Notes: generated by a model from the sequence alone, not told the origin. DNA of 64,000 nt from Proteobacteria bacterium CG1_02_64_396 (GCA_001872725.1 MNWR01000081.1:33849-97848), one strand, 5' to 3'; shown: positions 10,394 through 60,483, numbered from the stretch's first letter. Numbers and translations are program-made.

Positions 10394-13300
10394 TCAACCT
10401 TCCCCCTGAGTGCCCGCCTCTTGATCGCCCGGCGGTACCGGCGCGATGTAGCCGATCAGTAGCAGCAAAACCCCCACCCCGATGAACGAAACAATTCGCG
10501 CCACCGTGCCGGTATTGGCCATGTCGACCACAAAAAGCTTAAGGACCACCATCCCGAGCAGCGTGGCGCCAACGCTCCATTGCCAGCGGATGGCCCGACG
10601 GGTGGCGAAGAGCATCAAAGCCAGGGCGCTGACGCTCCACAGCAGCGACAGCGCCGATTGCACCAGGATCGAGTGCCACAAGGGTTGAAAAGCAAAGGGG
10701 ATGTCGCCCCAGTGATGGACGCTGCGCACCACCACCGCGTTGAGCCAACCAAACCCGAGCACCGCCACAACCATCGCCCCATGGGGCCAAGGGGTCTCAT
10801 CTTGCTGCGGCATGGCCCGCCACCAAGCCAGCAGGGCGGCAAGGATCGCCACTTGGGTTAGATCCAACGGGTTGAGCAGCGGCAGATAGGGCAAGGGGGA
10901 GGGATCGCCGGGGTGGTTGATCCAGCTCGACAGACTCCAGAGCAGTCCAAGGATGGCCCAGAGAAGGGGGGCATGAACCTGATAGGTGGTGTGATGGCGG
11001 TTGAGCGGCCAGGGGAGCCAACGACGCAGTAAAGCGGGCAGGGCGATCCCCAAGGCCAGCGGCATCCCCCATCCGGCTCCTTGCCAACCGTCGCCCCAAC
11101 CGGTCCGCTCGATCTGCCAGTGCCATTCCCAGGCGATCAGCACCAGGGCGACGGTATAGCCGGTCAGGTGCCGCAACGGGGTTTGCCATGCCGTCTCTTC
11201 ACGTTCTTGGCGTAGGGCCACGTCGTACAGACTGACCAGGGCGAGCAGCCAGCCCCCCCAGCTCCAGGCGCTGCCAGGGTGGCCGCCGCCTGCGGCCATA
11301 TCCACCAGACCCCAAGCTAGGATCGGGAGCAACAGCAGGGTGGCGCGGCGCAGCGAGGGCCACGACAGGATTTGCCCCCCCCTCTCGAACAACCAGGTCG
11401 CCACGGCGATCCCCCCCACCAAGGCGCCGGGACGCGCCTCGGGGCTCAACCATTGGCTACACAGGCCATACCAGGCGCTCACCCCCACCGCCAGCGACCA
11501 CATCAATGCGGCATCGGCCAGGGGCGCTTTGGCTGTATCCCCTTGCTCGCGCAGTCGGAAGCGCAGGTAGGCGGCAACCCATCCCAGCGCGCTCCACCCC
11601 AGTGCCCACCCCTCGTGAACATGGGTCAGACACCACAGCGCCTCCCAACTGGCCAGTACCACCATGGCCAGCCAGCCGATGGCGCCGCGCAAATCCAAAA
11701 ATCCCTCCTCAGCAAGGTCGTGTTGGCGATGCAAGATCCAAAAGTGGATCGCCAACGCCACAGGCCAGACCACCCACCCCCCCCAATCCAGGGGGTGGGT
11801 GTCGCCGACCACCGCCACCCGAATGGCGCCCAAGAGGGTCAACAACACCACGAGGGTGTGCAGATGGGTGGTCCGGCGCAGTCCCGCCCAATCGAGACGC
11901 TGGGCCAGCCACTGGCTGGCTGCGAAGAGCAGACTACTCCAGGCCAGCGTGGCGGCAGGGAGGTAGTCGTGGGGGAGGATCCCCTGCCAAATCAGATGGA
12001 GCCCGCCGAGCAACCACCAGGCTGCGGCCCAGAAGCTGGTCGAGGTCGAAAGGATGTCGGGGGGGGCAAAATCGGAGTCGAGCTGGTCGCGGTAGCGGTG
12101 GTAGAGCCAACCGGTGAGCCAACCGGCCAGGGCAATAAAGCTGCAACCGAGGATGAAATCGTTGAAGAAGGGGTTGGATTCGTCGTAGCTGCCATGCAGG
12201 TGCAGAAAATAACCCGCAGCCCCCCCTTGCAGGAGCATGCCGAAGCCTCTGGCCAGGGGGCGGTTTTGCCGGATCCCGAGCCAAACCACCCCCGCCCCCT
12301 CCAGCGTCCATAGGGCGAAGGTGGGGTAGCCCTCGAAGGCGAAATAGAAGGCCAGGGTGGTGAAGGCGATGGCTAGGGCCAGCTCGCTTTCGGCCAGCAG
12401 CCGCAGCGTTTCGCGGCGCAGCAGCGCCAGCCCCAACCCCAGGTAGAGCAGTGCGGCTCCCGCCGCGCTCCAGGCCAGGGGACGCCCCTCCATCCCCTGT
12501 ACCAATCCCGCTTGCAGAGCCGCCACCGCCAAAGGGGTGCCGAACACCAACAGGCCGTCGACCCACCCCTTGAGCTCGGGAGGCTGACGCTGGGCAAACA
12601 GGATCGGAATGGCCAGATAGATGGCAAAATAGCCGATCAGGAACGGCTCCACGGTGGCAAAGTGTTCGGGACGGTACGAAAACCACCCCCAGGTCAGCGC
12701 CACGACGAAGGTGAAGAAAAAGCCGACCAGATTCAGCGCCCGCCACGACTTGAACCAGCTGACCCCCAGAATGACCAGATTGAGCAGGGTGTAATACGAG
12801 AAAAGCAGGATGTGGGTGCCGCTGCCGGTAGCGGCCAGGATCGGGGCTAGGAAGGCGCCGATCAGCCCTAGGACCGCCAGGGAGGGGGCATCCTGACGCA
12901 CCGCGAGCACCAGGGTGACCACCCCCAACGCCATGAATAGAGCAAAGGCGGCGGTGGGGCCGATCAGGATGAAGGTTTTCAGGGCGAAGTAGACATCGAG
13001 GTAAGCCAGCCCCACCCCGCCCCCTTGCAGAATCAACCCGTACAGCCGACGCCCCGCCAGCATCCGGGCTCCCCCCACCCACATGCCGACCGCAACAACC
13101 CCCACTCCGAGCAGGCGGCTCCAGGGGGGGAGGACGGCGTGGTCATAGGCGTACTTGAGCAGGAAGCCGACCCCGAAAAAGAGGATCACCACCCCCAACT
13201 TGGCCACCAGGTTTTCGCTGAGCCAGCGCGCCCAAACCGACGTCCAGCTTTCGGTGGGGGGTGTCGGCGGTTTCTGTTGGAAGGACGGGGGCGGGGTGGG

Positions 13301-13786
13301 GGTGCGCTCCTGCGGTTTGGGTGCGGTTGCGACCGGCGAAGGGGCGACCGGCGAAGGGGCGACCGGCGAAGGGGCGGGGCGGGGATCCGCCTGGCGGATG
13401 CGCGGATCGCTCGCCATGGCGGCGGTTTGCCGAGCCGGGGTTGAAGCAGTGGTACGGGGCGGCAGGGTGGAGGAGGGCGCCGCCGCCCCCCCCTCCTCTT
13501 CGACCTTGAGTCCCAAACGGGCCCGCTCCAGCCGTTCGATCCGTTTGTGGGCCTGTTCCAGCGCCCATTCCAGATGGGTCACCCGTTCCTCAAGGGTGGA
13601 GGGGGTCGATGTCGGCGAAGTGGCAAGAGGCCAGGAAACCGGGGTTGACGGAGTCTTTTCGTCCTCCCGGCCAGGGTCGAGCAAATAGGCGATGACCCAT
13701 CCCAGGAAAGCCCCGAGCAGGAGCCCAACGAGGCCCGCGACCAATAGCCCCAGTACACCACCACCCAGCGTCCACCCGATCTTCAT
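10394..13786 (-). CDS. Large polytopic membrane protein, DUF2339-like (N-terminal TM, coiled coil, Pro-rich linker, about 24 TM helices)
   Basis: ATG at complement of 13784-13786 with AGGAG 7 nt upstream. MKIGWTLGGGVLGLLVAGLV TM, coiled coil LEERVTHLEWALEQAHKRIERLERARL, PSPVA repeats, then an about 900-aa multi-TM body. Family assignment from architecture only. Confidence 0.65.
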   Translation of the reverse strand: MKIGWTLGGGVLGLLVAGLVGLLLGAFLGWVIAYLLDPGREDEKTPSTPVSWPLATSPTSTPSTLEERVTHLEWALEQAHKRIERLERARLGLKVEEEGGAAAPSSTLPPRTTASTPARQTAAMASDPRIRQADPRPAPSPVAPSPVAPSPVATAPKPQERTPTPPPSFQQKPPTPPTESWTSVWARWLSENLVAKLGVVILFFGVGFLLKYAYDHAVLPPWSRLLGVGVVAVGMWVGGARMLAGRRLYGLILQGGGVGLAYLDVYFALKTFILIGPTAAFALFMALGVVTLVLAVRQDAPSLAVLGLIGAFLAPILAATGSGTHILLFSYYTLLNLVILGVSWFKSWRALNLVGFFFTFVVALTWGWFSYRPEHFATVEPFLIGYFAIYLAIPILFAQRQPPELKGWVDGLLVFGTPLAVAALQAGLVQGMEGRPLAWSAAGAALLYLGLGLALLRRETLRLLAESELALAIAFTTLAFYFAFEGYPTFALWTLEGAGVVWLGIRQNRPLARGFGMLLQGGAAGYFLHLHGSYDESNPFFNDFILGCSFIALAGWLTGWLYHRYRDQLDSDFAPPDILSTSTSFWAAAWWLLGGLHLIWQGILPHDYLPAATLAWSSLLFAASQWLAQRLDWAGLRRTTHLHTLVVLLTLLGAIRVAVVGDTHPLDWGGWVVWPVALAIHFWILHRQHDLAEEGFLDLRGAIGWLAMVVLASWEALWCLTHVHEGWALGWSALGWVAAYLRFRLREQGDTAKAPLADAALMWSLAVGVSAWYGLCSQWLSPEARPGALVGGIAVATWLFERGGQILSWPSLRRATLLLLPILAWGLVDMAAGGGHPGSAWSWGGWLLALVSLYDVALRQEREETAWQTPLRHLTGYTVALVLIAWEWHWQIERTGWGDGWQGAGWGMPLALGIALPALLRRWLPWPLNRHHTTYQVHAPLLWAILGLLWSLSSWINHPGDPSPLPYLPLLNPLDLTQVAILAALLAWWRAMPQQDETPWPHGAMVVAVLGFGWLNAVVVRSVHHWGDIPFAFQPLWHSILVQSALSLLWSVSALALMLFATRRAIRWQWSVGATLLGMVVLKLFVVDMANTGTVARIVSFIGVGVLLLLIGYIAPVPPGDQEAGTQGEG
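13329..13373. repeat. 15-bp perfect tandem repeat x3 (GCGACCGGCGAAGGG), in-frame inside the DUF2339-like gene, encoding (PSPVA)3
   Basis: Three contiguous identical 15-mers read directly in the sequence. Minus-strand translation shows PSPVAPSPVAPSPVA. Confidence 0.85.
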
Positions 13787-14006
13787 GATCGACTCCTTGA
13801 AATTGTCTTGAGGCCGAAGCAGCCGCCCCCGCGATCTTGGGGGGTGACCTGATTCGGGGCAATGCAATGGCAGCACTCGTCACCGGCCCTTACCAAAGGG
13901 GATGCTCTTGGCTAGAATCCCGCCCCTTTTGTGCATTAGGCCCGGGGTCTCGACTTCGGACGATTAGCCTCGCCGCGACATACATTTATCTTTGGAGTGG
14001 ACATCC

Positions 14007-18270: not shown

Positions 18271-18891
18271 TTAGATCGTGGTAATGCCGACCTCTGCGTC
18301 GGCCCTGGCGGTGACCTCGTTGAGTGCCGCCGCCACCCTGGCTTTGGCCTGCTCTTTTGAAAGCCCCCCGAGATCGACCGGATCCCCCCAAACAAAGACC
18401 CCGCGACCGAAGGGGAGCGGCAGGAAGTGACGATCCCAAGAGCGCAACTGGCGAAAGCGACTGGTGGCGAAGGCGAAGGGGACAATCGGTAACTTGTAGC
18501 GTTGGGCAATCTCGACCGCCCCCTGGGCCACGGAGCGACGTGGACCGCGAGGGCCGTCGGGGGTGATCCCGAGGGAAACCCCCTCTTGAGCCGAACGCAG
18601 CAACCCTCGAATCGCCCCGGCAGACCCCTTGCTCCCCGACCCTCTAATCGCCTCGATGCCGAAACGGTGGAAAAAGGTCGAGACGATCTCGCCATCGCGG
18701 CTGTTGCTGATGACGCAGTGGGTGGGGCGGCGCGGTGCGAAAAGGGGGAACAGGCTCAACCGCTCGTGCCAAGCGACGATGACAACCTGACCTTCGGGAG
18801 GGGCGCCGAGTATCCGCCAGCGCACGGTGTGGCGAATCAGCCAGACATACAGGGCGATTAGCCGGGCTGTGGTGCCGGGTGATAGGGTCAT
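18271..18891 (-). CDS. DUF374-family lysophospholipid acyltransferase-like protein (paralog 2)
   Basis: 206 aa. Conserved with the upstream paralog (AWHERLSL...ISNSRDGE...GSGSKGSAGAIRGLL...GITPDGPRGPRR...LPFGRGVFVWG), the family usually linked to kdtA/msbA. Confidence 0.65.
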   Translation of the reverse strand: MTLSPGTTARLIALYVWLIRHTVRWRILGAPPEGQVVIVAWHERLSLFPLFAPRRPTHCVISNSRDGEIVSTFFHRFGIEAIRGSGSKGSAGAIRGLLRSAQEGVSLGITPDGPRGPRRSVAQGAVEIAQRYKLPIVPFAFATSRFRQLRSWDRHFLPLPFGRGVFVWGDPVDLGGLSKEQAKARVAAALNEVTARADAEVGITTI

Positions 18892-18899
18892 GGAGGCGG

Positions 18900-19523
18900 C
18901 TAGATGGTGACGATGCCGACCGCCGCGTCGGCCTGGGCGGTGGTTTCGTTCAGCGCCTGGGTCACCTTGGCTTGGGCCTCCTCCTTACTCAGCCCATCCA
19001 GATCGACCGCTTCCCCCCAGACAAACACCCCGCGACCGAAGGGTAGCGGGACGAAGTGGCGATCCCACGCCTTGGTCACCTGCCTGAAACGGCTGGTGGC
19101 ATAGGCCATGGGAACCACCGGGATGTGGTATCGCATCGCCACCTCAAGGGTCCCCTGGGCCATTTGACGCCGCGGTCCGGTTGGGCCGTCGGGGGTAATA
19201 CCCAGGCTGAACCCCTCCTGGGCCGCCTTGAGCAATCCCCGGAGTGCGCTGGCGCCACCTCGGTTGCCCGATCCCCGCACCGATTCGATGCCGAAACGAC
19301 GCATAAACAGAGTAACCAGCTCCCCATCTTTATGCTGGCTGACGATGCACTGGGTGGGGCGTTTGGGGGTGAAGAAGGGCCACAGCGAAAGCCGTTCGTG
19401 CCAAGCAACGATGATGGCCTGCCCCTCGGGTGGGGTGCCGGTGACCTGCCAGCGTTGGGTCTTGAAGGACAGCCAAAGGTAGGCGGCCAGCACCGTTTCG
19501 ATCACCCTGGGATGAATCTTCAT
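18900..19523 (-). CDS. DUF374-family lysophospholipid acyltransferase-like protein (paralog 1)
   Basis: 207 aa, roughly 60-65% identical to the 18271..18891 product by eye. Start overlaps the msbA stop (ATGA). Confidence 0.65.
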   Translation of the reverse strand: MKIHPRVIETVLAAYLWLSFKTQRWQVTGTPPEGQAIIVAWHERLSLWPFFTPKRPTQCIVSQHKDGELVTLFMRRFGIESVRGSGNRGGASALRGLLKAAQEGFSLGITPDGPTGPRRQMAQGTLEVAMRYHIPVVPMAYATSRFRQVTKAWDRHFVPLPFGRGVFVWGEAVDLDGLSKEEAQAKVTQALNETTAQADAAVGIVTI

Positions 19524-21256
19524 GAAGTAGCCGCCTGTTCGGCGCGAAATTGCATGTGGTACAGCCCGGCGTAGGCGCCATTGCGGGCCAGAAGTTCGTC
19601 GTGTTTGCCCTCTTCGACGATCTCGCCGCGCTGCATCACCACGATCCGGTCGGCGTGGCGGATGGTCGACAAGCGGTGGGCGATCACCAGGGTGGTGCGC
19701 CCCACCATCAGCCGATCAATCGCCTGCTGCACCATCGCTTCCGATTCGCTATCGAGGGCCGATGTCGCCTCGTCGAGAATTAAAATCGGGGCATCCTTGA
19801 GTAGCGACCGGGCGATGGAGACCCGCTGCCGCTGCCCCCCGGAGAGTCGCCCCCCCCGCTCCCCGGCCAGCGCTTCGAATCGCTCGGGAATTTGCTCGAT
19901 GAATTCCAGTGCGAAAGCGTCGGCGGCGGCGGCGCGCACCTGCTCGGGCGAGACGTCGTCACGACCGTAGGCGATGTTCTCGTGCAGGGTTTCGTTGAAG
20001 AGGATCACCTCTTGAGTCACCAGGGCGATGCCGCCGCGCAGCGATTCAAGCTCCATGTCGCGGATGTCGACCCCCCCGATTTCGATGCTCCCCCCCTGGG
20101 GGTCGTAGAAACGGGGAATCAGGTTGGCCAAGGTCGACTTGCCCGAGCCCGATGCCCCTACCAGCGCCACCACTTCCCCTTGCCTGACGGTCAGATCGAT
20201 CCCCTTGAGCGCCTCCTCCTTGCTGTCGGGGTAGGCAAAACGCAGCCCCTTGATGGCAATGTCGCCGGTGGGACGGTTCAAAAGGCGCTGCCCGGTGTTG
20301 GTTTCGGGGGGGCTATCGATGATGGCGAACACCCGGTCAGCGGCCGCCAATCCCTCATGCATCTTGTTGTTGAAGGTCGACAGCCGTTTGACCGGCTCAT
20401 AGACCATCAACAGAGCGGTGAGGAACGAAAAGAAATTGCCGGGGGTGGTGGTGCCGGCGATGACGTTGCTGCCGCCGTAGTAAACCACCAAGGCAATACC
20501 GAAGGAGGCAAACATCTCAACAATCGGGGAAGAGGTGGTGTTGTAGGTCTCGGTCTTGATGCCCAGGCGGGCCAGCTCGTCGACCATCTTGCGGAAACGT
20601 CCCGCCTCGTGCCTCTGCATGCCGAAGGCTTTAACAATTCGGATGCCCCCCAGGGTTTCTTCAAGGCGGGAGGTCAACATCCCCATGTTTTGGGCGGTTT
20701 GCTGAGCAATCTTTTTGATGCGCCTGGCGATGATGACCACCGGCATCATCGCCAGGGGGAAGACGATCAGGGTGTAAAAGGCGAGCAGCGGATCGCGGTA
20801 GATGACCAGGGCGACCAGAAACAGGGCGGTGAGCAGGTCGCGCACTGCGCCGGTCACCAGCATGGTTAACCCCGCCTCGATGGTCAGCACGTCATAGGTG
20901 ACCCGGCTCATCAATTGCCCCTTACCCTGACGGTCGATGACCGTCATGGGTAGGGAGAGGATGTGGGTGTACAGGTCGCTACGCAGCGCGGCGATCACCG
21001 AGTGCCGGGTTTTGGCCATCAACACACCCTGCCCGAAATAGGCCACCCCCTTGGTCGTGTAAATGGCGATGACGATCCAAGGGAGAATCACCAGCGCTTG
21101 CTCGTTCTTGGCGACAAAAACGTCGTCGAGAATGGGCTGAATGACGAAGGCGGTTCCAGCGGTGGCGGCGGCCACCACCACCATGCAGAGCATGGCGAGG
21201 ATCAGGGTCGAAACGTGGGGGCGCAGATACTGGAGCAGGCGGCGCAGGTGGTTCAT
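19520..21256 (-). CDS. msbA: Lipid A / lipid export ABC transporter, fused permease-ATPase (MsbA-like)
   Basis: Six N-terminal TM helices; Walker A GASGSGKST; signature LSGGQRQRVSIARSLL; Walker B ILILDEATSALD. 578 aa. Confidence 0.8.
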   Translation of the reverse strand: MNHLRRLLQYLRPHVSTLILAMLCMVVVAAATAGTAFVIQPILDDVFVAKNEQALVILPWIVIAIYTTKGVAYFGQGVLMAKTRHSVIAALRSDLYTHILSLPMTVIDRQGKGQLMSRVTYDVLTIEAGLTMLVTGAVRDLLTALFLVALVIYRDPLLAFYTLIVFPLAMMPVVIIARRIKKIAQQTAQNMGMLTSRLEETLGGIRIVKAFGMQRHEAGRFRKMVDELARLGIKTETYNTTSSPIVEMFASFGIALVVYYGGSNVIAGTTTPGNFFSFLTALLMVYEPVKRLSTFNNKMHEGLAAADRVFAIIDSPPETNTGQRLLNRPTGDIAIKGLRFAYPDSKEEALKGIDLTVRQGEVVALVGASGSGKSTLANLIPRFYDPQGGSIEIGGVDIRDMELESLRGGIALVTQEVILFNETLHENIAYGRDDVSPEQVRAAAADAFALEFIEQIPERFEALAGERGGRLSGGQRQRVSIARSLLKDAPILILDEATSALDSESEAMVQQAIDRLMVGRTTLVIAHRLSTIRHADRIVVMQRGEIVEEGKHDELLARNGAYAGLYHMQFRAEQAATS

Positions 21257-23270: not shown

Positions 23271-24194
23271 ATGGAATCCATCGTGACGATCCCCACGATT
23301 CGCAAGGCGGTTTTTCCCGTCGGCGGGTTGGGAACCCGGTTCCTGCCCGCCACCAAGGCAATCCCCAAAGAGATGCTCCCCATCGTTGATAAACCGCTGG
23401 TGCAGTATGCGGTTGAGGAGGCGGTGGCAGCGGGGTGCGACGAAATCATCTTTGTTACCGGGCGGGGCAAAACGGCGTTGGAAGACCACTTCGACCGTTC
23501 CCTTGAACTCGAAGAATCGCTGCGTCGCGCCGCCAAAGAGGTACTGCTGACTCGGGCGACCGAGATGCCCCCTCCGGGCATTCGCATGGTCTATACCCGT
23601 CAGGGTGAGGCGTTGGGGCTAGGTCATGCGGTGTTGTGCGCCGAGGCGTTGGTGGGCAACGAGCCCTTTGCGGTGATTCTGGCCGACGATTTCATCCTCA
23701 GCGACCGAGCCGGGGCGCTGGCCCAGATGGTCTCGGCCTATCGGGGGGGGGCGCTGCTGGCGGTACAAGAGGTGCCCGACGACGAGATCAGCCGTTATGG
23801 GGTGATCCGTCCAGGTGGTGAGGTCGCTGGTTGTATCGCCGTCGAGGCGATGGTCGAAAAACCCCCCGCCGATCAGGCTCCCAGCAATCTGGGGGTGGTC
23901 GGGCGGTACATCTTGCCCCCCGAGATTTTTCAAACCTTGCGTACCACCCCCAAAGGCAAGGGGGGGGAGATCCAGTTGACCGACGCCATCGCAGCGTTGA
24001 TCGGTCGTTATCCGGTGGGCGCATTTCGGTTTCACGGCACCCGTTACGATTGTGGCTCCAAGGGGGGATTCCTAGCCGCCAATCTTCGGGTGGGACTCGA
24101 CCACCCCGAAGTGGCCAAGGAACTCAGCCGGGTGATTCGGCAATCGGGGACCGACCGAGCCCGCCTTATTCAGGCATTGGAGAGCGGCAGTTGA
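23271..24194 (+). CDS. galU: UTP--glucose-1-phosphate uridylyltransferase
   Basis: KAVFPVGGLGTRFLPATKAIPKEMLPIVDKPLVQYAVEEA N-terminal signature; 307 aa. Confidence 0.85.
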   Translation: MESIVTIPTIRKAVFPVGGLGTRFLPATKAIPKEMLPIVDKPLVQYAVEEAVAAGCDEIIFVTGRGKTALEDHFDRSLELEESLRRAAKEVLLTRATEMPPPGIRMVYTRQGEALGLGHAVLCAEALVGNEPFAVILADDFILSDRAGALAQMVSAYRGGALLAVQEVPDDEISRYGVIRPGGEVAGCIAVEAMVEKPPADQAPSNLGVVGRYILPPEIFQTLRTTPKGKGGEIQLTDAIAALIGRYPVGAFRFHGTRYDCGSKGGFLAANLRVGLDHPEVAKELSRVIRQSGTDRARLIQALESGS

Positions 24195-24991
24195 TTCGAC
24201 TCAACCAGGTGGTCAAACGGTTTGAAGGCCGCTTGGTTACCGACCATGTCAGTGCCAACTTCCCCCAAGGGAAGGTCAGCGTCATTCTGGGGGGCAGCGG
24301 CTCGGGCAAGAGCACCCTGCTGCGCCAGATGACCGGCCTGCTGCCCCCCGACGGGGGGATGATCGAGATCGACGGGCAGGATGTGCCCCAGCTGGGGCGG
24401 CGCGATCTGTACCGACTGCGTCAGAGGCTGGGGATGCTGTTTCAGAACGGCGCTCTGCTCAACGCCATGAACGTGTTCGAGAACATCGCCTTTCCCATGC
24501 GGGCCCACACCAACCTATCGGAACGGATGATCCGTATCATCGTCGGCATCAAGCTCGAAATGGTGGGGCTGCGCGGGACCGAACACCTCATGGCCTCCGA
24601 ACTCTCCGGCGGGATGGTCAAACGGGTCGCTCTGGCCCGGGCCATTGCCTTGGATCCCCCCGTGATGTTCTTCGACGAGCCCTTTTCGGGGCTCGATCCG
24701 ATCAGCGCCGGGGTGATCGAGAAATTAATCCTCGACTACAAAAAGATCCGGGGGGCGACCTGTGTGGTGGTTTCCCACGACATCCCCTCTACCTTCCGTA
24801 TGGCCGACCACATCATCATCCTCAGTCATGGGCGGGTGATCGCCCAGGGCAGCGCCCAAGAGATCCAACAATCGCCCCATCCCGAGGTGCAGCAGTTCAT
24901 TCAAGGATTGCCCGACGGCCCCATCCGCTTTCGGTATCCGGCGCAGGCCCCTCTTCAGGACGATTTGATGCAAAGGGCACAGCGGTTATGA
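24191..24991 (+). CDS. mlaF: Phospholipid ABC transporter ATP-binding protein MlaF
   Basis: Walker A GGSGSGKST, signature LSGGMVKRVALARA, Walker B MFFDEPFSGLD. The ORF's upstream extension overlaps galU; the in-frame TTG at 24191 overlaps the galU stop. Confidence 0.8.
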   Translation: MIRLNQVVKRFEGRLVTDHVSANFPQGKVSVILGGSGSGKSTLLRQMTGLLPPDGGMIEIDGQDVPQLGRRDLYRLRQRLGMLFQNGALLNAMNVFENIAFPMRAHTNLSERMIRIIVGIKLEMVGLRGTEHLMASELSGGMVKRVALARAIALDPPVMFFDEPFSGLDPISAGVIEKLILDYKKIRGATCVVVSHDIPSTFRMADHIIILSHGRVIAQGSAQEIQQSPHPEVQQFIQGLPDGPIRFRYPAQAPLQDDLMQRAQRL

Positions 24992-25758
24992 ATCCCATTG
25001 AGCGTTTGGGGCGGTTGGGGGTGCGCACCCTGCTGGCTTTTGGCGATGCCGGTACCTTTCTGGCCGAAACGGTGCGGGCATCGGTTTTGCCTCCGGTGCG
25101 CCTGCGCTTTGTAATCGATCAAGTTTTCGACATCGGCGTTAAATCGTTGGTCATCATTGTTGTGACCGGTCTGTTCACCGGCATGGTGTTGGGGCTCCAG
25201 GGTTACAACACCTTGAGCAAATTCGGCTCGGAGGAGGCGCTGGGCACCTTCGTGGCGCTTTCGTTGATTCGAGAGTTGGGGCCGGTACTCGGTGGCTTGC
25301 TGGTGGCTGGACGGGCCGGATCGGCGATCACCGCCGAGATCGGTTTGATGAAAACCACCGAACAGATCGCCGCCCTTGAGGTCATGGCGGTCGATCCCAT
25401 GGGGCGGGTGGTGGCGCCGCGTTGGTTGGCCGGGATGATCGCGGTGCCACTGCTGGTGGCGATCTTCGATGTGGTGGGGATCTACGGCGGCTATCTGGTC
25501 GGAGTCGACATGCTGGGGGTGAATCCCGGCGCCTATTGGGTCGAGATGGAGAAATACGTCGATTTCGACGAAGACGTTTTTGGGGGGATGGTCAAGGCCT
25601 TTGTTTTCGGCTTGTTCCTCACCTGGATGGCGACCCATCAGGGTTGGAGTTGCCGCCCCACCTCTGAAGGGGTGGGGCAAGCGACCACCCGCACCGTGGT
25701 GATCTCCTCGGTGGGGATCCTCATCATCGACTACGTGTTGACCGCCATTTTGATGTGA
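24988..25758 (+). CDS. mlaE: Phospholipid ABC transporter permease MlaE
   Basis: 256 aa, 5-6 TM helices, MlaE-like conserved region (IRELGPVLGGLLVAGRAGSAITAEIG). ATGA overlap with mlaF. Confidence 0.8.
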   Translation: MNPIERLGRLGVRTLLAFGDAGTFLAETVRASVLPPVRLRFVIDQVFDIGVKSLVIIVVTGLFTGMVLGLQGYNTLSKFGSEEALGTFVALSLIRELGPVLGGLLVAGRAGSAITAEIGLMKTTEQIAALEVMAVDPMGRVVAPRWLAGMIAVPLLVAIFDVVGIYGGYLVGVDMLGVNPGAYWVEMEKYVDFDEDVFGGMVKAFVFGLFLTWMATHQGWSCRPTSEGVGQATTRTVVISSVGILIIDYVLTAILM

Positions 25759-25775
25759 AGCTTAAGGAGCTGACG

Positions 25776-26222
25776 ATGCCCCGTTGGGTCGATTTTGTGG
25801 TCGGGTTGTTCATGGTGGCGGGGATCGCCGCCATGGGGTACCTGGCGGTTAATTTAGGCAATCTGCAGATCGGCAATCAAAATGTTTACACCCTGCATGC
25901 CACCTTTCCCACCGTCAGCGGCCTGAAGTTGGGGGCACAGGTGGAACTTGCCGGGGTGCCGATCGGCCGGGTCGCCCTTATTGCGGTCGACAAATTGCAG
26001 GACCGGGCCGATGTCGACATCGAGGTTAGGGGCGACATCAGGCTGCCCGACGATACCTTTGCCTCGGTTCGGACCCAGGGGATCATCGGCGATAAGTACA
26101 TCCAACTGACCCCTGGTGGCTCTCTCGACATTCTCGGCGACGGGGACGAAATCACCGAAACCGAAGGGTCGCTCCAGCTTGAAGAGCTGATTAGCAAGTA
26201 CATTTTTGAGAAGGATAAGTGA
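25776..26222 (+). CDS. mlaD: MCE-domain periplasmic substrate-binding component MlaD
   Basis: N-terminal TM anchor plus MCE domain (YTLHATFPTVSGLKLGAQVELAGVPIGRV). ATG at 25776 with AAGGAG 6 nt upstream. Confidence 0.75.
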   Translation: MPRWVDFVVGLFMVAGIAAMGYLAVNLGNLQIGNQNVYTLHATFPTVSGLKLGAQVELAGVPIGRVALIAVDKLQDRADVDIEVRGDIRLPDDTFASVRTQGIIGDKYIQLTPGGSLDILGDGDEITETEGSLQLEELISKYIFEKDK

Positions 26223-26238
26223 ACGGATTCCCCCCCTC

Positions 26239-27618
26239 ATGACCCCCCCAACCTCTACCTCCACCCCCCTGGTTATGGGCCGTATTTGGGCGCTGTTGTG
26301 GGGCGCCCTGGGGTGGGGCGTGTCGGCGTCGTTTGCTGGCGCTGCCCCCTTGTCCCTAAACGACCTTCTGGATCGGGTCGACACCACCTCGGCCGAGCTG
26401 CAAGAACACGACGCCAAAATCGACGAGGCCCAAGCCCTGCTTGACCAGGTATTGGGCAGCAGCGGGCCGAGTTTCTCGATGCGGCTGTTTGCCGGTCCCA
26501 CCTCGAAGGCGAGGGGGGATCAAGTCACCTCCCCCGATTCCCAGTGGCGCCTTTCGGGGTTGTCCGATTGGGAGGGGCTCGATTTCAGCGTCATTCAGCC
26601 CCTTGCCGGGTTTGGTCGTTTCGAGGCCTACAAAAGGGCCGCCGAGGCCAACATCGTCATGGAGGAGGCGGCCAAAGAGGTGAAGCGGGCCGAACTGCGA
26701 CAACAGGTTCGGGCGCTTTATTTTGGTGCTTGGGTGGCCCGCGACATCACAGTGTTGTTGCAGGAGAGCCTCGATCGGGTCGAGAAGGCGATCGGTATCG
26801 TCGAGGATGCGCTTGATGAGGGGAACGAAGACTTTTCCTCTGTCGATCTACTGAAGCTCAAAAGTGGCAAGGGGAAAATCGACGGTTTTATGCCCCAAGC
26901 CAAGGCGGCTCAGCTGATGGCGGTTGAGGCGCTGCGCGGACTGCTCAGGTTGGGACCGAACGAGACGGTCGAACTGCCCAATTACCCGATTCAGGCGCCC
27001 AGTTTGCCTGCCGACGCATTGGCGGTGCTGCAATCGAGGGCCTTGGAGCAACGGCCTGAAATGCAGCAGGTCGCGGCGGGACTCGCCGCCACCCAGGCTT
27101 TGAGCGATGCCGAACAAGCCAATGGCCGTCCCGTGGCTGCCCTGGCACTGGTCGGTTCGGCGGCCCATGCCGGCAACCGTTCACGCATCGACAACCCTTT
27201 CATCAACGACCCCTTCAACCACCTGTACGGCACCGTGCTCGTGGCGCTGCAATGGGAGATCAACATGGGGGTTCACGATGCCAAAGTCGCCCAGGCCCAG
27301 GCCAAGGCGGCTCAGGTGGCAGCCAAGGAGCGTTTTGCCCGCACCGGCATTCCCCTCCAGGTCATGCAGGCCTACTACGAAACCCTGCAATATAACGAGA
27401 CGGTGAAGGGATTCAGGGATGCCTACAAAGCGGGCAATCAATGGTTGGTGGCCGCCTATGCCGACTTCGAAATGGGGGTGGGGCAGGCCAAGGAGGTTTT
27501 CGATGCGTTGTCCGAATACACCCTGAATCGGGTGGCCTATTTACAAGCGGTGTATGCGTTGCAGTTATCGACCGGTCGCCTGGTTCAGGCGGTGGGGGGA
27601 GACAAAGATGATCGGTAG
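26239..27618 (+). CDS. TolC-family outer-membrane efflux protein (OEP) embedded in the mla operon
   Basis: Signal-peptide-like LWGALGWGVSASFAGAAPLS; two OEP repeats with coiled-coil helices (LNDLLDRVDTTSAELQEHDAKIDEAQALLDQ...; ALQLSTGRLVQAVGG). Start uncertain among the TTG at 26206 and ATGs at 26239/26275. Confidence 0.6.
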   Translation: MTPPTSTSTPLVMGRIWALLWGALGWGVSASFAGAAPLSLNDLLDRVDTTSAELQEHDAKIDEAQALLDQVLGSSGPSFSMRLFAGPTSKARGDQVTSPDSQWRLSGLSDWEGLDFSVIQPLAGFGRFEAYKRAAEANIVMEEAAKEVKRAELRQQVRALYFGAWVARDITVLLQESLDRVEKAIGIVEDALDEGNEDFSSVDLLKLKSGKGKIDGFMPQAKAAQLMAVEALRGLLRLGPNETVELPNYPIQAPSLPADALAVLQSRALEQRPEMQQVAAGLAATQALSDAEQANGRPVAALALVGSAAHAGNRSRIDNPFINDPFNHLYGTVLVALQWEINMGVHDAKVAQAQAKAAQVAAKERFARTGIPLQVMQAYYETLQYNETVKGFRDAYKAGNQWLVAAYADFEMGVGQAKEVFDALSEYTLNRVAYLQAVYALQLSTGRLVQAVGGDKDDR

Positions 27619-28261
27619 TCGTGGATGGAGCGCGTTGCGCCGCTTGATTGCGATGGTGGTTGTTCTCGGAGCCCTTTTGGGCGCAGGGATGCATCAAGCG
27701 GTGGCCCAGTCTTCGGCAACTGAGGTGGTGTCGACCACCGTGAATCATGTGCTGGAGATCCTGCGCGATCCCGCTCTCAAGGGGGCCGAGAAGGCGGCAC
27801 AACGGCGCCAGCTTATCAGTGACACCATCTGGGCCCATTTCGATTTCGATTCGATGGCCTCATCGACCCTCGGCTCAACCTGGCGAGAAATGACCCCTCC
27901 CGAACGGAACCGTTTTCTTGGCCTGTTCCGCGATCTTCTGCACCGCTCTTACATCGGCGCCATCGAGTCCTACACCGACGAAAAGGTGGTGTTCACCAGT
28001 GAGGAGCCGGTGGGGAGCAAGGGGAACAAGATGGTGGTTCACAGCGAGATCCAGCGCCCCCCCGCCGAGCCGATCCCCATCGATTACCGGCTCAAGCAGA
28101 AGGGGCAGGACTGGTGGGTGTACGACATCTACGTCGAGGGGGTGAGCCTCATCAGCAACTATCAGAACTCCTTCCGCAAGATCGTCGCCAAGGATGGGGT
28201 GTCGGGATTGCTGGATCGATTGCGTAAGAAGGTCGAATCCAACGAGAGCGGCGATGTCTGA
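27608..28261 (+). CDS. mlaC: Periplasmic phospholipid-binding protein MlaC (Ttg2D/toluene-tolerance family)
   Basis: Signal peptide MIGSRGWSALRRLIAMVVVLGALLGAGMHQAVA; MlaC-like core (ILRDPALKG...RFLGLFRDLLHRSYIG...DWWVYDIYVEGVSLI). Overlaps the OMP gene end by 11 nt. Confidence 0.75.
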   Translation: MIGSRGWSALRRLIAMVVVLGALLGAGMHQAVAQSSATEVVSTTVNHVLEILRDPALKGAEKAAQRRQLISDTIWAHFDFDSMASSTLGSTWREMTPPERNRFLGLFRDLLHRSYIGAIESYTDEKVVFTSEEPVGSKGNKMVVHSEIQRPPAEPIPIDYRLKQKGQDWWVYDIYVEGVSLISNYQNSFRKIVAKDGVSGLLDRLRKKVESNESGDV

Positions 28262-28562
28262 TCCCGGCGGTTTGCACATCGAGGGGGATCAAGTGGTACT
28301 GAGCGGCGACCTGACCTTCGCGACGGTTCCCGCCCTTGAAACCCGTCTTAATGGCCACAACGGGGGTACCTTGAACACCTTCGATCTGACCCGGGTCGCC
28401 GCCTTCGACAGTGCCGGGTTGGCATTGCTGGTGGTGTTGGCGGCCCGCCTGGAGGGGGTTCGTCCCCGGTTGATCGGGGTCAGCGCCGAGGTGGCCAGCC
28501 TGCTGGCGATGGGGGGGGTGTCCGACCTGTTTCATTGGGAAGGTAAACCATCCCCCCCTTGA
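28254..28562 (+). CDS. mlaB: STAS-domain protein MlaB
   Basis: 102 aa anti-sigma-antagonist-like fold (LSGDLTFATVPALETRL...FDLTRVAAFDSAGLALLV). ATG overlaps the mlaC stop. Confidence 0.7.
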   Translation: MSDPGGLHIEGDQVVLSGDLTFATVPALETRLNGHNGGTLNTFDLTRVAAFDSAGLALLVVLAARLEGVRPRLIGVSAEVASLLAMGGVSDLFHWEGKPSPP

Positions 28563-29881
28563 CCCCGCTGCCCCAGGATCCCCTGGTCGCCCGCCTCTGG
28601 CCCGAGGTGGCCTGGTTGATCCAGCGCTTTCCCTCCGGCGCGTTGGTCGCATGTTCGGGTGGGGGCGATTCCTGCGCCCTGCTCGATCTCATGGCCCAAT
28701 GGGCTCTTAAGGGCCAATGGCCCTGGGCGGTGGCGACCTTCGACCACGGCCTGCGCCCCGAGGCGGCGGTCGAGGCGCGCTGGGTCGCAACCCAATGCAA
28801 CACCTACGGCGTCGACCATTTTCTGCTGCATCCCCCCACCCCCCTGCACGATCTTCCTGGCAATCTTGCCGACAACGCCCGTCGCCTGCGCTATGAGGCG
28901 CTTGGCCGCTGTGCCCGCGATCTCGGGTTTTCGGTGGTGCTCACCGCCCACCATCTTGACGACCGCATCGAGGGGATGTTGATGGCGCTGCTGCGCGGCG
29001 GCTCCCCCCAAGCCTTAGCCCCCCAACCCCCCTTACGCCCCCTGGAGGGCGATCTGTGGTTGGCCCGCCCCCTCAACAACGTGGGTCGCGGCGAACTGCG
29101 TGCCTACCTAGGGGGTCGCCATCTGCCCTGGCTGGAGGATCCTTCCAACAGCTCTACCCATACCGGGCGGGGATCGGCGCGCCACCGCTTGCTCCCTTGG
29201 CTAGAACACAATCAACCGGGGGCGCGCGAGGGTCTGGCCGCCAGCCTGAGCATGTTGTCCCAACAATTGCAGCGGGACGAACGGGCGGCCCTTCCCCAAA
29301 CAAGATGGCATTGGTGGCGGCGCGATCCGGCGCTTTCCCCCCGACAAGCCATGGCTGGATTGGGCTTGGGGGTCGCCCTCTCGGGCCGTGAGGAGCGGGA
29401 AATCCTTACCCGCTGGACCCGTTCCGAAGGTCGCTGGGACAAGCCCGGTTTAACCTTGCTGTGGCACGGCAATTGGGCTGGATGGGGCAGGGGGGGGCTG
29501 CAGCCCTGGCAAGAAGGGGTGTGGAAGGAAGATCAATCTGTTTTCGACTTGGGCGATTGGGGTTACCTCTGGCGTGACGGCGGGGCGGGGTTGGCCGCCC
29601 CCCCCCATCCTTATTGGGGACGGCTGATTTGGCTTGCGGCAACGACTTGGCAGGTTAAGGTGGCGCCACCGCAACATCCCTGGCCCGCAGGCCGCTCGAA
29701 GGTGGTGGCTCGCCATCTTCAGGGTGGCTTGCTCCCCCGCTGGCTGCGGGCCCCCTTTCCCGCCCTGGGTTCGATGGAGGGAGCGATCTTGGCACTGCCG
29801 GGCATTGCGTCCGCCCGCCACGAAGGACAAGGGGTTCGGGTTGGATGGTGCCCCCCATGGTGGCGGCTGGGGAGACGCTGA
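28559..29881 (+). CDS. tilS: tRNA(Ile)-lysidine synthetase
   Basis: PP-loop SGGGDS (LVACSGGGDSCALLDL) and TilS N-terminal architecture. TTG start overlaps the mlaB stop (TTGA). 440 aa. Confidence 0.75.
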   Translation: MTPLPQDPLVARLWPEVAWLIQRFPSGALVACSGGGDSCALLDLMAQWALKGQWPWAVATFDHGLRPEAAVEARWVATQCNTYGVDHFLLHPPTPLHDLPGNLADNARRLRYEALGRCARDLGFSVVLTAHHLDDRIEGMLMALLRGGSPQALAPQPPLRPLEGDLWLARPLNNVGRGELRAYLGGRHLPWLEDPSNSSTHTGRGSARHRLLPWLEHNQPGAREGLAASLSMLSQQLQRDERAALPQTRWHWWRRDPALSPRQAMAGLGLGVALSGREEREILTRWTRSEGRWDKPGLTLLWHGNWAGWGRGGLQPWQEGVWKEDQSVFDLGDWGYLWRDGGAGLAAPPHPYWGRLIWLAATTWQVKVAPPQHPWPAGRSKVVARHLQGGLLPRWLRAPFPALGSMEGAILALPGIASARHEGQGVRVGWCPPWWRLGRR

Positions 29882-30143
29882 TTCAATGCAGGATGCCTTT
29901 AATCGGCGATTCTCTAGGATTCTCTTGAGAGGACCCCATGACCGTGTGTCTCTGATGCGACAGCCCCTCTTACGCTTTGTCACCCCCGCGCCTCCGGTTT
30001 TCTCGCGAGTGAAATCTTGACAGGTTTGCTCGGTTGACCGCCCCTTCGTGGGGGATGATGATCATCCCAACGGGTTTCGCTAATGAGGGTCCGAATTAGC
30101 ATTCAAAGTGTCCGAATACAAAAAGAGAAGAAAGGAGTCCCCC

Positions 30144-31412
30144 ATGGGTCAACTCATTCAGAAAAAGGCAAGTCCTAGGCTGAATACGGCCTTGGCAGTT
30201 ATGGCTACTGCGGTCTTGGTTGCCTCGTGTGGTCCCCCCAAGTTGGATCTGTCGCAAAAACCCAACTGGACCCCGGTGCGTGACACGATGGTGCTTCCGG
30301 GCGGCGCTGTGGCCTATACCGGCGACACCTACCGAGTGGCGGTCATGCCGTTTGCCAACACCACCGCCTTGGCGGGGACGGTGAACCAAAATCAAAGCCA
30401 GACCGTGACCGATTCGGTGTCGGCCTCCAGGACCACCCATGCCGAGGCCAACGTGGTCGGCATCGTTGCCGCCCCCGGCGCTGTGGGGATTGGCCATGTC
30501 GGGGTCTCCCAGACCAACACCGTCGGGGCCAGCCATACCGATGCGCGCACCAAGGGTGAGAGCTCCTCGTTCGAGGTGCAGATTGGCAATGTGGCGACCG
30601 ACGCCATGATTAAGGAGTTGGTCAACCTGGGCGGGGTCAAGATCTTTACCCGGACCGAGCTCGACAAGGTGATGAACGAGCAACGGTTCCAGATGTCGGG
30701 GATGGTCCCTGATGATCAGATGATCCAGTTCGGTAAAATGGCGGGGCTGACCCACGTGATTACCGGTACCGTTTCCAACATCAAAAAGGAGTTCGTCGAG
30801 CAGACCTCTGTCGAAACGGACCGTGATGACTCGGGCGGGGCGATGCTCCTCAAGGGGGCTTTCAACGCATATTCCGCAGCCTCCTCGGGCTGGAACGTCG
30901 ATGTTGAGGTGCAGGTACGCATCATCAACGTGCAGACCGGCGAGATCGAATTTGCCGACAAGCTGATCGGCCACGAGGCGGGCAGCGCCGATCCGATGGC
31001 CGGCTCCGATGTGATTTTGGGGATTGCCCAAGATGCTCTGGGTGAGGCGGTCGAGACCGCCAAGGCCCCTCTGTCGAAGATCTTCGCCCCCCAGGGTTAC
31101 CTCAAGCAGGTTTACCTGCGCATCGACGAACCGGCGGTGGCCAATCTGAACCTGGGTGAGAAAGACGGGATCAAGCCCGGTCAGCAGATCGAGATCCTCT
31201 CCTTCGAGACCATCACCGATCCCATCACCGGTCAGAGTGAGGTCCAGAAGTACCGGGTTGCCACCATGACCATCGTCGATCCCATTCAGCCCCACGATGC
31301 TTGGGCCCAGATCGACGATGCTGCCAAGAGTGGTCTGCTCAAGGTCGGTATGCCATTCAAGCGGATGGAGCTTTCCAACGGCATGGGCGCAACCATGAAG
31401 GGGATGTTCTAA
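30144..31412 (+). CDS. CsgG-family-like outer-membrane lipoprotein with extended C-terminal region
   Basis: Lipobox LVASC after an N-terminal signal; AAAGGAG SD 6 nt before the ATG. CsgG-like motifs VAVMPFANTT and LGGVKIFTRTELDKVMNEQRFQMSGMV...GKMAGLTHVITGTV. About 150 aa longer than canonical CsgG. Confidence 0.5.
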   Translation: MGQLIQKKASPRLNTALAVMATAVLVASCGPPKLDLSQKPNWTPVRDTMVLPGGAVAYTGDTYRVAVMPFANTTALAGTVNQNQSQTVTDSVSASRTTHAEANVVGIVAAPGAVGIGHVGVSQTNTVGASHTDARTKGESSSFEVQIGNVATDAMIKELVNLGGVKIFTRTELDKVMNEQRFQMSGMVPDDQMIQFGKMAGLTHVITGTVSNIKKEFVEQTSVETDRDDSGGAMLLKGAFNAYSAASSGWNVDVEVQVRIINVQTGEIEFADKLIGHEAGSADPMAGSDVILGIAQDALGEAVETAKAPLSKIFAPQGYLKQVYLRIDEPAVANLNLGEKDGIKPGQQIEILSFETITDPITGQSEVQKYRVATMTIVDPIQPHDAWAQIDDAAKSGLLKVGMPFKRMELSNGMGATMKGMF

Positions 31413-31437
31413 ACCCTTTGCGCCGTGTTGAACCTCG

Positions 31438-31472
31438 GGCCGAGGGGGCGCGCAGCCTCCTCGGCCTTTTTT
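31438..31472 (+). terminator. Rho-independent terminator after the CsgG-like gene
   Basis: GGCCGAGG / CCTCGGCC 8-bp stem with a 13-nt loop, followed by TTTTTTG. Confidence 0.6.

Positions 31473-59664: not shown

Positions 59665-60483
<819 letters not shown>

Follow-up and report, generated by a model that had tools for sequence, protein, structure and literature searches.

A divergent TolC-family protein encoded between mlaD and mlaC as a candidate outer-membrane partner of the lipid carrier MlaC

An operon for Mla-type lipid transport, located at positions 24191-28562 of a 64,000-nucleotide stretch of DNA from Proteobacteria bacterium CG1_02_64_396 (GCA_001872725.1, MNWR01000081.1:33849-97848; the whole stretch is hereafter referred to as the window), was found to encode a divergent outer-membrane protein of the TolC family (hereafter OEP) in the order mlaF-mlaE-mlaD-OEP-mlaC-mlaB. 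As judged from its genomic associations, the OEP is very probably a dedicated component of this Mla lipid system, and the trimer that it is predicted to form may serve as the dedicated outer-membrane partner, or station, of the periplasmic carrier MlaC, instead of or besides the lipoprotein MlaA, a reading to which a probability of about 0.6 is assigned. An earlier examination of the DNA alone (the sequence-only reading) had proposed the gene order, which is borne out by the open reading frame (ORF) calls and the Pfam and NCBIfam matches, and had described the variant as little characterised. In agreement with the latter, no description of it was found in the literature searched; full-text searches, with subscription-only literature outside their coverage, retrieved no paper on a TolC-family partner of MlaC.

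The association of the OEP gene with mlaC is conserved in all of the 33 related loci recovered by sequence (33/33), which come from Geobacter, gammaproteobacterial metagenome-assembled genomes (MAGs), Entotheonellaceae, Rokubacteria, unassigned metagenome contigs and the window organism; the adjacency spans at least four phyla and the commonest order is mlaE/F-mlaD-OEP-mlaC. A word-index search for homologues, which gave ten matches with the single OEP protein and three with a 76-sequence profile, recovered this operon from three additional contigs of the window organism. When a single genome of each GTDB species was scanned, seven loci emerged (Geobacter hydrogenophilus, a Geobacter MAG, an Ectothiorhodospiraceae MAG, two Gammaproteobacteria MAGs, Entotheonellaceae and Rokubacteria), each with mlaD-OEP-mlaC, and the exact window order F-E-D-OEP-C-B is found in the gammaproteobacterial MAG locus L015. 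In the 15 more loci contributed by a metagenome scan, mlaC follows the OEP gene throughout and mlaD precedes it wherever the contig extends that far. The five-gene cluster of Geobacter is a self-contained unit amid unrelated neighbours. Since the same order recurs both in independent metagenome contigs of one organism and in distant taxa, the arrangement is not considered to be due to chance. A second mlaC-like gene was also observed in the Geobacter MAG (L012 16481-17059), about 6.5 kb downstream of the OEP-linked mlaC.

The pair is retained even where the inner-membrane engine is a different one. In L005 (5060-9317) and L006, a transporter of the MMPL/HAE3 type is followed by mlaC and then by the OEP gene, with the genes overlapping; the best match of this transporter is HpnN (239 bits, under the cut-off of that model), and the locus represents a form of the carrier-plus-barrel pair driven by an RND engine. 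In L008 and L009, OEP and mlaC occur alone with no adjacent inner-membrane engine. As the OEP-mlaC pair thus survives the exchange or the loss of the engine, it is MlaC, and not MlaD, that is indicated as the direct partner. Docking of MlaD on the OEP, in the manner of MacA on TolC, was considered and rejected as the main model, MlaD being as short as or shorter than its E. coli counterpart and the pair occurring also without MlaD.

A natural fusion of the two proteins provides further evidence. The protein P0106 (677 aa) carries the OEP at the N-terminus and MlaC at the C-terminus, joined by a linker of about 55 residues without a hydrophobic signal sequence. Five sequence variants of the fusion, all of 677 aa, are present in contigs from several separate metagenome samples (JGI, ENA and NCBI); in the three contigs read (L036 1696-3729, also L037 and L038) the cluster is mlaE-mlaD-[OEP::MlaC], without an mlaF call between the first two genes. 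Such a fusion is evidence of the Rosetta-stone kind for joint action of carrier and barrel, and in this lineage the 'shuttle' would be tethered to the outer-membrane protein. Three other candidate fusions were discarded: P0114 (MMPL and OEP) and P0126 (LPG_synthase_TM/HpnL-like and OEP) have a signal-peptide-like stretch at the junction and are found in one contig each, and are regarded as adjacent genes, while P0099 (PEPCK and OEP) looks like a gene-calling merger.

The OEP itself is a full-length, divergent protein of the TolC fold that belongs to a separate subfamily. It has a cleavable type-I signal peptide (MGRIWALLWGALGWGVSASFAGAA) and no lipobox cysteine, and is therefore not NodT/OprM-like; its matches to the NCBIfam models NodT (TIGR01845, 34.9 bits, cut-off 210) and TolC (TIGR01844, 28.5 bits, cut-off 225) place it outside the curated NodT and TolC type I secretion subfamilies. 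The window protein is named 'hypothetical protein' in GenBank (OIO55921.1/PJA23736.1, Proteobacteria bacterium CG1_02_64_396, a Crystal Geyser MAG), and its orthologue in Geobacter hydrogenophilus bears the annotation 'TolC family protein'. An AlphaFold2 model of the monomer, computed from the 76-sequence alignment (predicted local distance difference test 94.7, predicted template-modelling score 0.87), has the canonical outer-membrane-factor topology, with beta strands at residues 66-76, 97-111, 287-299 and 316-326, two helices of 67-69 residues (about 100 Å), return helices and an equatorial segment at 224-248. Foldseek comparison with the PDB returned TolC, OprN, CusC, OprM, SilC and VceC at template-modelling scores of about 0.75 and identities of 14-20%. 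Four strands per protomer would fit a homotrimer with a 12-stranded barrel. Neither the operon nor any related locus with Pfam annotation was found to contain a gene for an adaptor of the membrane-fusion protein (MFP)/HlyD type.

Two extracellular loops are predicted from the model. Loop 1 (SKARGDQVTSPDSQWRLSGL; 26503-26562, plus strand), between strands 66-76 and 97-111, exceeds the aligned E. coli TolC loop by about 10 residues, and its G81 is kept in 89% of the family. Loop 2 (GNRSRIDNPFINDPFN; 27172-27219, plus strand), whose translation was confirmed, is flanked by strands 287-299 and 316-326. With 2.24 bits per position (family mean 1.76) it is conserved more strongly than any other extended segment of the family, and it carries the signature R-x3-(D/E)-N-P-(F/Y)-x2-D-x-(F/L)-N, in which R302, P308 and D312 are conserved in 87%, 83% and 93% of the sequences, respectively. 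This motif is found in the MlaFED-linked as well as the MMPL-linked members and not in E. coli TolC.

An exhaustive profile search collected 1288 clusters (at 50% identity) with E<=1e-30, the top 150 of which score 300-600 bits; against the hidden Markov model of the OEP family, E. coli TolC reaches 66 bits. Seven more distant matches, at 303-327 bits, were inspected, and four of these lie by lipid-transport genes: P0106 and P0120 with mlaC, P0114 with MMPL and P0126 with an HpnL-like LPG_synthase_TM gene. With this profile, the boundary of the subfamily lies near 310 bits. A 201-aa ORF that follows the distant homologue P0153 was examined as a possible MlaC and found not to be MlaC-like. Another distant homologue, P0157 (L039 989-2819), keeps the loop-2 motif (RENIDNPYFYDQYN) and is followed by a lone STAS-domain gene, with no MlaC or MlaFED nearby.

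The operon forms part of a run of eight tightly packed genes on the plus strand (23271-29881), as established by ORF calls with Pfam and NCBIfam matches. The genes of the lipid system are mlaF (ABC ATPase subunit with a TTG start, 24191-24991; PF00005, ABC_tran, 1.6e-29), mlaE (permease subunit, 24988-25758; PF02405, 1.2e-78), mlaD (single-MCE protein of 155 aa, 25755-26222; PF02470, 5e-20, residues 45-121), the OEP gene (26239 or 26275 to 27618; PF02321, 1.5e-27, 97 bits, two repeats), mlaC (periplasmic lipid carrier, 27608-28261; PF05494, 2.3e-50) and mlaB (putative STAS-domain accessory subunit, 28254-28562; PF13466, 6e-11). They are preceded by galU (UTP-glucose-1-phosphate uridylyltransferase, 23271-24194; PF00483, 1e-29) and followed by tilS (tRNA-Ile lysidine synthetase, 28559-29881; PF01171, 2e-37).

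The inner-membrane module is of the canonical MlaFEDB type, together with MlaC. MlaE (NF033619, 348 bits, cut-off 315) and MlaD (TIGR04430, 148 bits, cut-off 135) pass the thresholds of their NCBIfam models. The best NCBIfam match of MlaF is the MlaF model NF008809 (303 bits, under the 441-bit equivalog cut-off), and MlaB, with 32 bits against NF033618 (cut-off 90), has a STAS domain and the operon position expected of MlaB. MlaD is anchored in the membrane at its N-terminus, has a single MCE domain and ends in a tail of about 34 residues, without a long helical or beta-barrel extension. MlaC has an N-terminal signal peptide; its best NCBIfam match is HpnM (TIGR03481, 109 bits, under the cut-off of 160), and it scores 63 bits against enteric MlaC (PRK15117, cut-off 195).

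The reading frames are closely interlocked. Overlaps of 4 nt, read from the sequence, occur at galU/mlaF, mlaF/mlaE, mlaE/mlaD and mlaB/tilS; at the first of these the TGA stop of galU overlaps the TTG start of mlaF, an instance of translational coupling, and the last confirms the coupling of tilS at the 3' end that the sequence-only reading had described. The OEP gene overlaps mlaC by 11 nt, with a ribosome-binding site (GGGGGGAG) preceding the mlaC ATG, and mlaC overlaps mlaB by 8 nt. The claim that start and stop codons overlap throughout thus holds for these junctions (4, 4, 4, 11, 8 and 4 nt) and fails at mlaD/OEP, the sole junction without a clear overlap, where the OEP start is ambiguous: an ATG at 26239 (NCBI call, 459 aa) leaves a spacer of 16 nt after mlaD and an ATG at 26275 (JGI call, 447 aa) one of 52 nt. 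An overlap with mlaD results only with a TTG start at 26206, and the corresponding 470-aa ORF has no exact match in the databases, which carry the 447-aa and 459-aa calls. Promoter and terminator scans within the operon gave no signal exceeding the shuffled expectation; the sole strong terminator-like site lies at 31437-31467, 3' of a CsgG-like gene. The tilS gene, which is not kept beside the cluster in other taxa, is treated here as an operon passenger outside the lipid system. A galU homologue is located about 3.7 kb upstream of mlaF in L015.

The absence of mlaA from the operon and the window, as claimed by the sequence-only reading, is upheld at the 64-kb scope: tblastn with E. coli MlaA (E<=1) gave no match in the window, and no Pfam match to PF04333 was obtained on ten plausible ORFs of 170-480 aa. 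No second OEP gene occurs in the window either. PF04333 searches in the Pfam-annotated related loci and tblastn with E. coli MlaA across the loci were likewise negative, and in the loci examined mlaA and the OEP gene were never found together in one cluster. Operon orders in published genomes, read from consecutive accession numbers (Grasekamp et al. 2023, Supplementary Data 1), are relevant in this respect. The order is E-F-D-MlaA-C in Pelobacter carbinolicus and Desulfocapsa, F-D-A-C in P. acetylenicus and E-F-D-C-A in Desulfovibrio and Desulfomicrobium (PMC10665443). One unlisted gene lies between mlaD and mlaC in G. sulfurreducens (AAR34145 / AAR34143), Desulfobacca acetoxidans (AEB09361 / AEB09363) and Methylomirabilis lanthanidiphila (SYW88071 / SYW88069) (PMC10665443), and in two other Geobacter genomes the gene in this gap was directly observed to be the OEP gene. 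By these orders, the mlaD-[x]-mlaC slot contains mlaA in other Desulfobacterota, and the OEP gene holds the operon position that mlaA occupies in sister lineages. In addition, Desulfobacca has MlaC and no MlaA, and Rokubacteria bacterium 13_1_40CM_2_68_13 has three MlaC and no MlaA (PMC10665443).

In the Rokubacteria-type loci L004, L007, L010, L011, L018 and L030, the cluster has a hopanoid-gene neighbourhood (shc, hpnH). The word-index homologues from three soil lineages of this type have mlaE-mlaF-mlaD-OEP-mlaC directly 3' of the squalene-hopene cyclase gene shc and opposite hpnH-/hpnG-like genes; the shc-linked clusters extend over L004 4045-10161, L007 3871-10054, L010 2851-8834, L018 3919-9924 and L030 2697-8826. 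The shc-linked arrangement looks like a putative ABC/MCE-type hopanoid transport module, with a cargo that is probably a hopanoid, and a preprint on hopanoid transport by HpnN, HpnM, HpnS and HpnT is silent on such an mla-OEP cluster (bioRxiv 10.1101/2025.07.29.667474). In the window, no shc, hpnH or MMPL gene was detected. The most likely cargo of the window system would be a glycerophospholipid, since MlaE and MlaD pass their equivalog thresholds, a putative MlaB is present and hopanoid genes are absent from the window.

The proposed mechanism may be outlined as follows. An MlaF2E2D6B2-like ABC complex would reside in the inner membrane and soluble MlaC in the periplasm, where it would shuttle lipid between MlaFEDB and the outer membrane; MlaC would remain the carrier because MlaD, at 145-188 aa in these clusters, would fall short of the outer membrane and of the OEP. 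The OEP would form a 12-stranded barrel in the outer membrane, with an alpha-barrel of about 100 Å that reaches into the periplasm and places a docking surface deep within it. MlaC is proposed to dock on the OEP by direct physical contact, and lipid would be handed over there to or from the outer membrane. Loop 2 may act at the outer leaflet, in extraction or insertion, an activity suggested by the conservation of this extracellular loop. Outward working of the OEP-MlaC pair is plausible, as the pair also occurs with an HpnN-like exporter.

Several observations weigh against the assignment of the OEP as the partner of MlaC. An MlaA homologue is encoded elsewhere in the genomes of G. sulfurreducens (AAR36062) and M. 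lanthanidiphila (SYW90039) (PMC10665443), and in both of these a single gene separates mlaD from mlaC. That this intervening gene is the OEP gene in these two species and in Desulfobacca is itself deduced from accession numbering. Three of the seven distant matches (P0140, P0153 and P0157) do not lie beside mlaC, and linkage to mlaC therefore marks the subfamily and not every look-alike. Furthermore, the lumens of TolC-type channels are water-filled and we know of no lipid route through or along such a channel. The proposal of a TolC-like protein as an alternative outer-membrane component for the Mla system is thus supported in so far as the adjacency to mlaC, the exchange of engines, the fusion and the operon slot shared with mlaA are concerned, while 'alternative to MlaA' is not established as a rule because G. 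sulfurreducens and M. lanthanidiphila carry MlaA elsewhere. That the OEP replaces MlaA in the window organism is a tentative suggestion that may well prove incorrect.

The same genomes bear on the possibility that the OEP trimer is a scaffold for an MlaA encoded elsewhere, like the OmpC/OmpF trimers of E. coli, with MlaA still exchanging lipid with MlaC. E. coli MlaA does function embedded in a trimeric barrel protein (PMC10665443, PMC12436622), and as the window covers 64 kb only, an mlaA gene may be located in another part of the genome. Such a role is nevertheless considered unlikely, given that Desulfobacca and a Rokubacteria genome have MlaC and no MlaA, that mlaA and the OEP gene share an operon slot in different lineages and were not encountered together in any cluster examined, and that the fusion puts MlaC directly on the OEP. 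A scaffold is not the only other role conceivable. That the OEP is an ordinary outer-membrane factor for efflux or type I secretion systems encoded elsewhere, which resides in the mla operon by co-regulation or accident, would agree with a protomer fold indistinguishable from that of TolC/OprM, with the location of E. coli tolC apart from the genes of its pumps and with the distant family members not beside mlaC. It is highly improbable in view of the adjacency to mlaC, with stop and start codons that overlap, in 33 of 33 loci from different phyla, the existence of a fusion to MlaC, the membership of a distinct subfamily with a loop signature absent from TolC and the lack of an MFP gene nearby.

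A different cargo may also be envisaged, in which case the system would be an exporter of specialised hydrophobic compounds (hopanoids, other non-phospholipid lipids or solvents) and not one for phospholipid asymmetry; an HpnM-like MlaC would pass the cargo outward to the OEP as the exit duct or outer-leaflet inserter. TolC-family ducts can indeed carry lipids, as exemplified by the DevBCA-HgdD exporter of heterocyst glycolipids in cyanobacteria. The Rokubacteria-type clusters directly follow shc and hpnH/hpnG-like genes, one lineage joins the OEP and MlaC to an HpnN-like MMPL exporter, the window MlaC scores better to HpnM than to enteric MlaC, and a hopanoid route through HpnN-HpnM has been put forward (bioRxiv 10.1101/2025.07.29.667474). 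This explanation is well supported for the Rokubacteria-type loci and not for the window, where it is improbable: shc, hpnH and MMPL genes are absent from the 64 kb, MlaE and MlaD score above the thresholds set for the phospholipid system, with a putative MlaB present as in canonical mlaFEDCB, the HpnM score of MlaC is below its cut-off, and the Geobacter and gammaproteobacterial MAG clusters have no hopanoid neighbours. A role of the OEP as the dedicated station of MlaC in lipid transport remains the preferred reading for the window.

The operon was compared with several known systems. It resembles the canonical Mla system of E. coli and other Proteobacteria in having MlaF, MlaE, a short single-MCE MlaD, a STAS protein at the position of MlaB and a periplasmic MlaC, with the order F-E-D-C-B kept, and differs from it in the TolC-family gene between mlaD and mlaC, in the absence of mlaA from the window and in an MlaC and an MlaB that score below the enteric equivalog cut-offs; the canonical outer-membrane partner is a lipoprotein in a porin trimer (MlaA-OmpC/F), and the window has a TolC-type channel. 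In Veillonella parvula and other Negativicutes, a class-wide mlaEFD-tolC-tamB arrangement has tolC directly 3' of mlaD in an outer-membrane biogenesis cluster (PMC10665443), and the likeness to the window lies in this position of a tolC homologue after mlaD. Unlike the window, the Negativicutes cluster has no MlaC, and its MlaD of 419 aa with a C-terminal beta-barrel is proposed to bridge the envelope, no role being proposed by the authors for tolC (PMC10665443); in the window MlaD is short and MlaC is coupled to the OEP.

The HpnN-HpnM-HpnS route for hopanoids proposed by Lawrence et al. (bioRxiv 10.1101/2025.07.29.667474) similarly links an MlaC-family carrier (HpnM) to an exporter of the inner membrane and to a dedicated partner in the outer membrane, and relatives of the OEP adjoin HpnN-like MMPL genes or shc/hpnH; its partner HpnS, however, is an MlaA-like lipoprotein, the proposal mentions no TolC-like protein, and the window uses MlaFEDB and has no hopanoid genes. 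MacAB-TolC and DevBCA-HgdD, like the window system, pair an ABC transporter with a TolC-family trimer. Both need a hexameric membrane-fusion or adaptor protein, whereas none is encoded in the operon or in the related loci, and soluble MlaC and an MCE ring are present instead (for general background on tripartite ABC pumps with TolC-family ducts, see PMC8277102). The Brucella Mpc (Mla-Pqi chimeric) system, in which MlaA is replaced by a PqiC-like lipoprotein (PMC12436622), is a precedent for an Mla-type ABC module swapping its outer-membrane partner; it differs from the window in its long needle-like MCE protein, the lack of MlaC and a partner that is a lipoprotein and not a TolC-type barrel.

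Lipopolysaccharide and envelope genes abound in the window as a whole, a setting that favours the preferred reading of the operon; they include an msbA-like ABC gene, two DUF374 genes, heptosyltransferases, an O-antigen ligase, an hldE-like kinase and a DegP-like protease. On the minus strand at 18271-21256, two DUF374 paralogues of 206 and 207 aa follow the msbA-like exporter gene in tandem, at junctions that overlap or nearly do so, and a DUF2339 membrane protein of 1160 aa is encoded at 10394-13876 (minus strand) within the envelope-biogenesis neighbourhood. Directly 3' of tilS, at 30108-31412, lies a lipoprotein gene with weak matches to the CsgG, LpoB and FlgT_C domains, which is conserved at this position in sister contigs L001 and L002; the terminator-like hairpin at 31437-31467 comes after it. 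A perfect hexanucleotide repeat, (TGGTCG) x 7.7, at 59681-59726 encodes about 15 valines within the N-terminal membrane segment of an ORF with DUF2726 and a Top1-type zinc ribbon (59665-60483); the repeat could be a slippage-prone tract.

The routes by which lipids enter and leave the outer membrane are among the less settled areas of Gram-negative envelope biology, and MlaA in its porin trimer is the only characterised outer-membrane partner of MlaC. A conserved TolC-family partner, if confirmed, would be a new outer-membrane component for the Mla pathway and an adaptor-free function of the TolC fold beyond efflux and secretion, and would connect the traffic of phospholipids with that of hopanoids via a common carrier-plus-barrel module. 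Geobacter, which carries the cluster and for which genetics exist, is a tractable organism for testing it. The wider proposition, that the TolC-fold subfamily is a third type of outer-membrane terminus for MlaC shuttles, serving both ABC (MlaFED) and RND (HpnN-like) engines with phospholipids or hopanoids and without an adaptor, is put forward as a speculative generalisation with slightly less than even odds. If true, it would assign a role in lipid trafficking to a family known only as efflux and secretion ducts, and would explain how the pathway is completed in diderms that have MlaC and lack MlaA, such as Rokubacteria and Desulfobacca. The occurrence of MlaC with the OEP in non-proteobacterial phyla also bears on the published view of MlaABC as a late proteobacterial addition.

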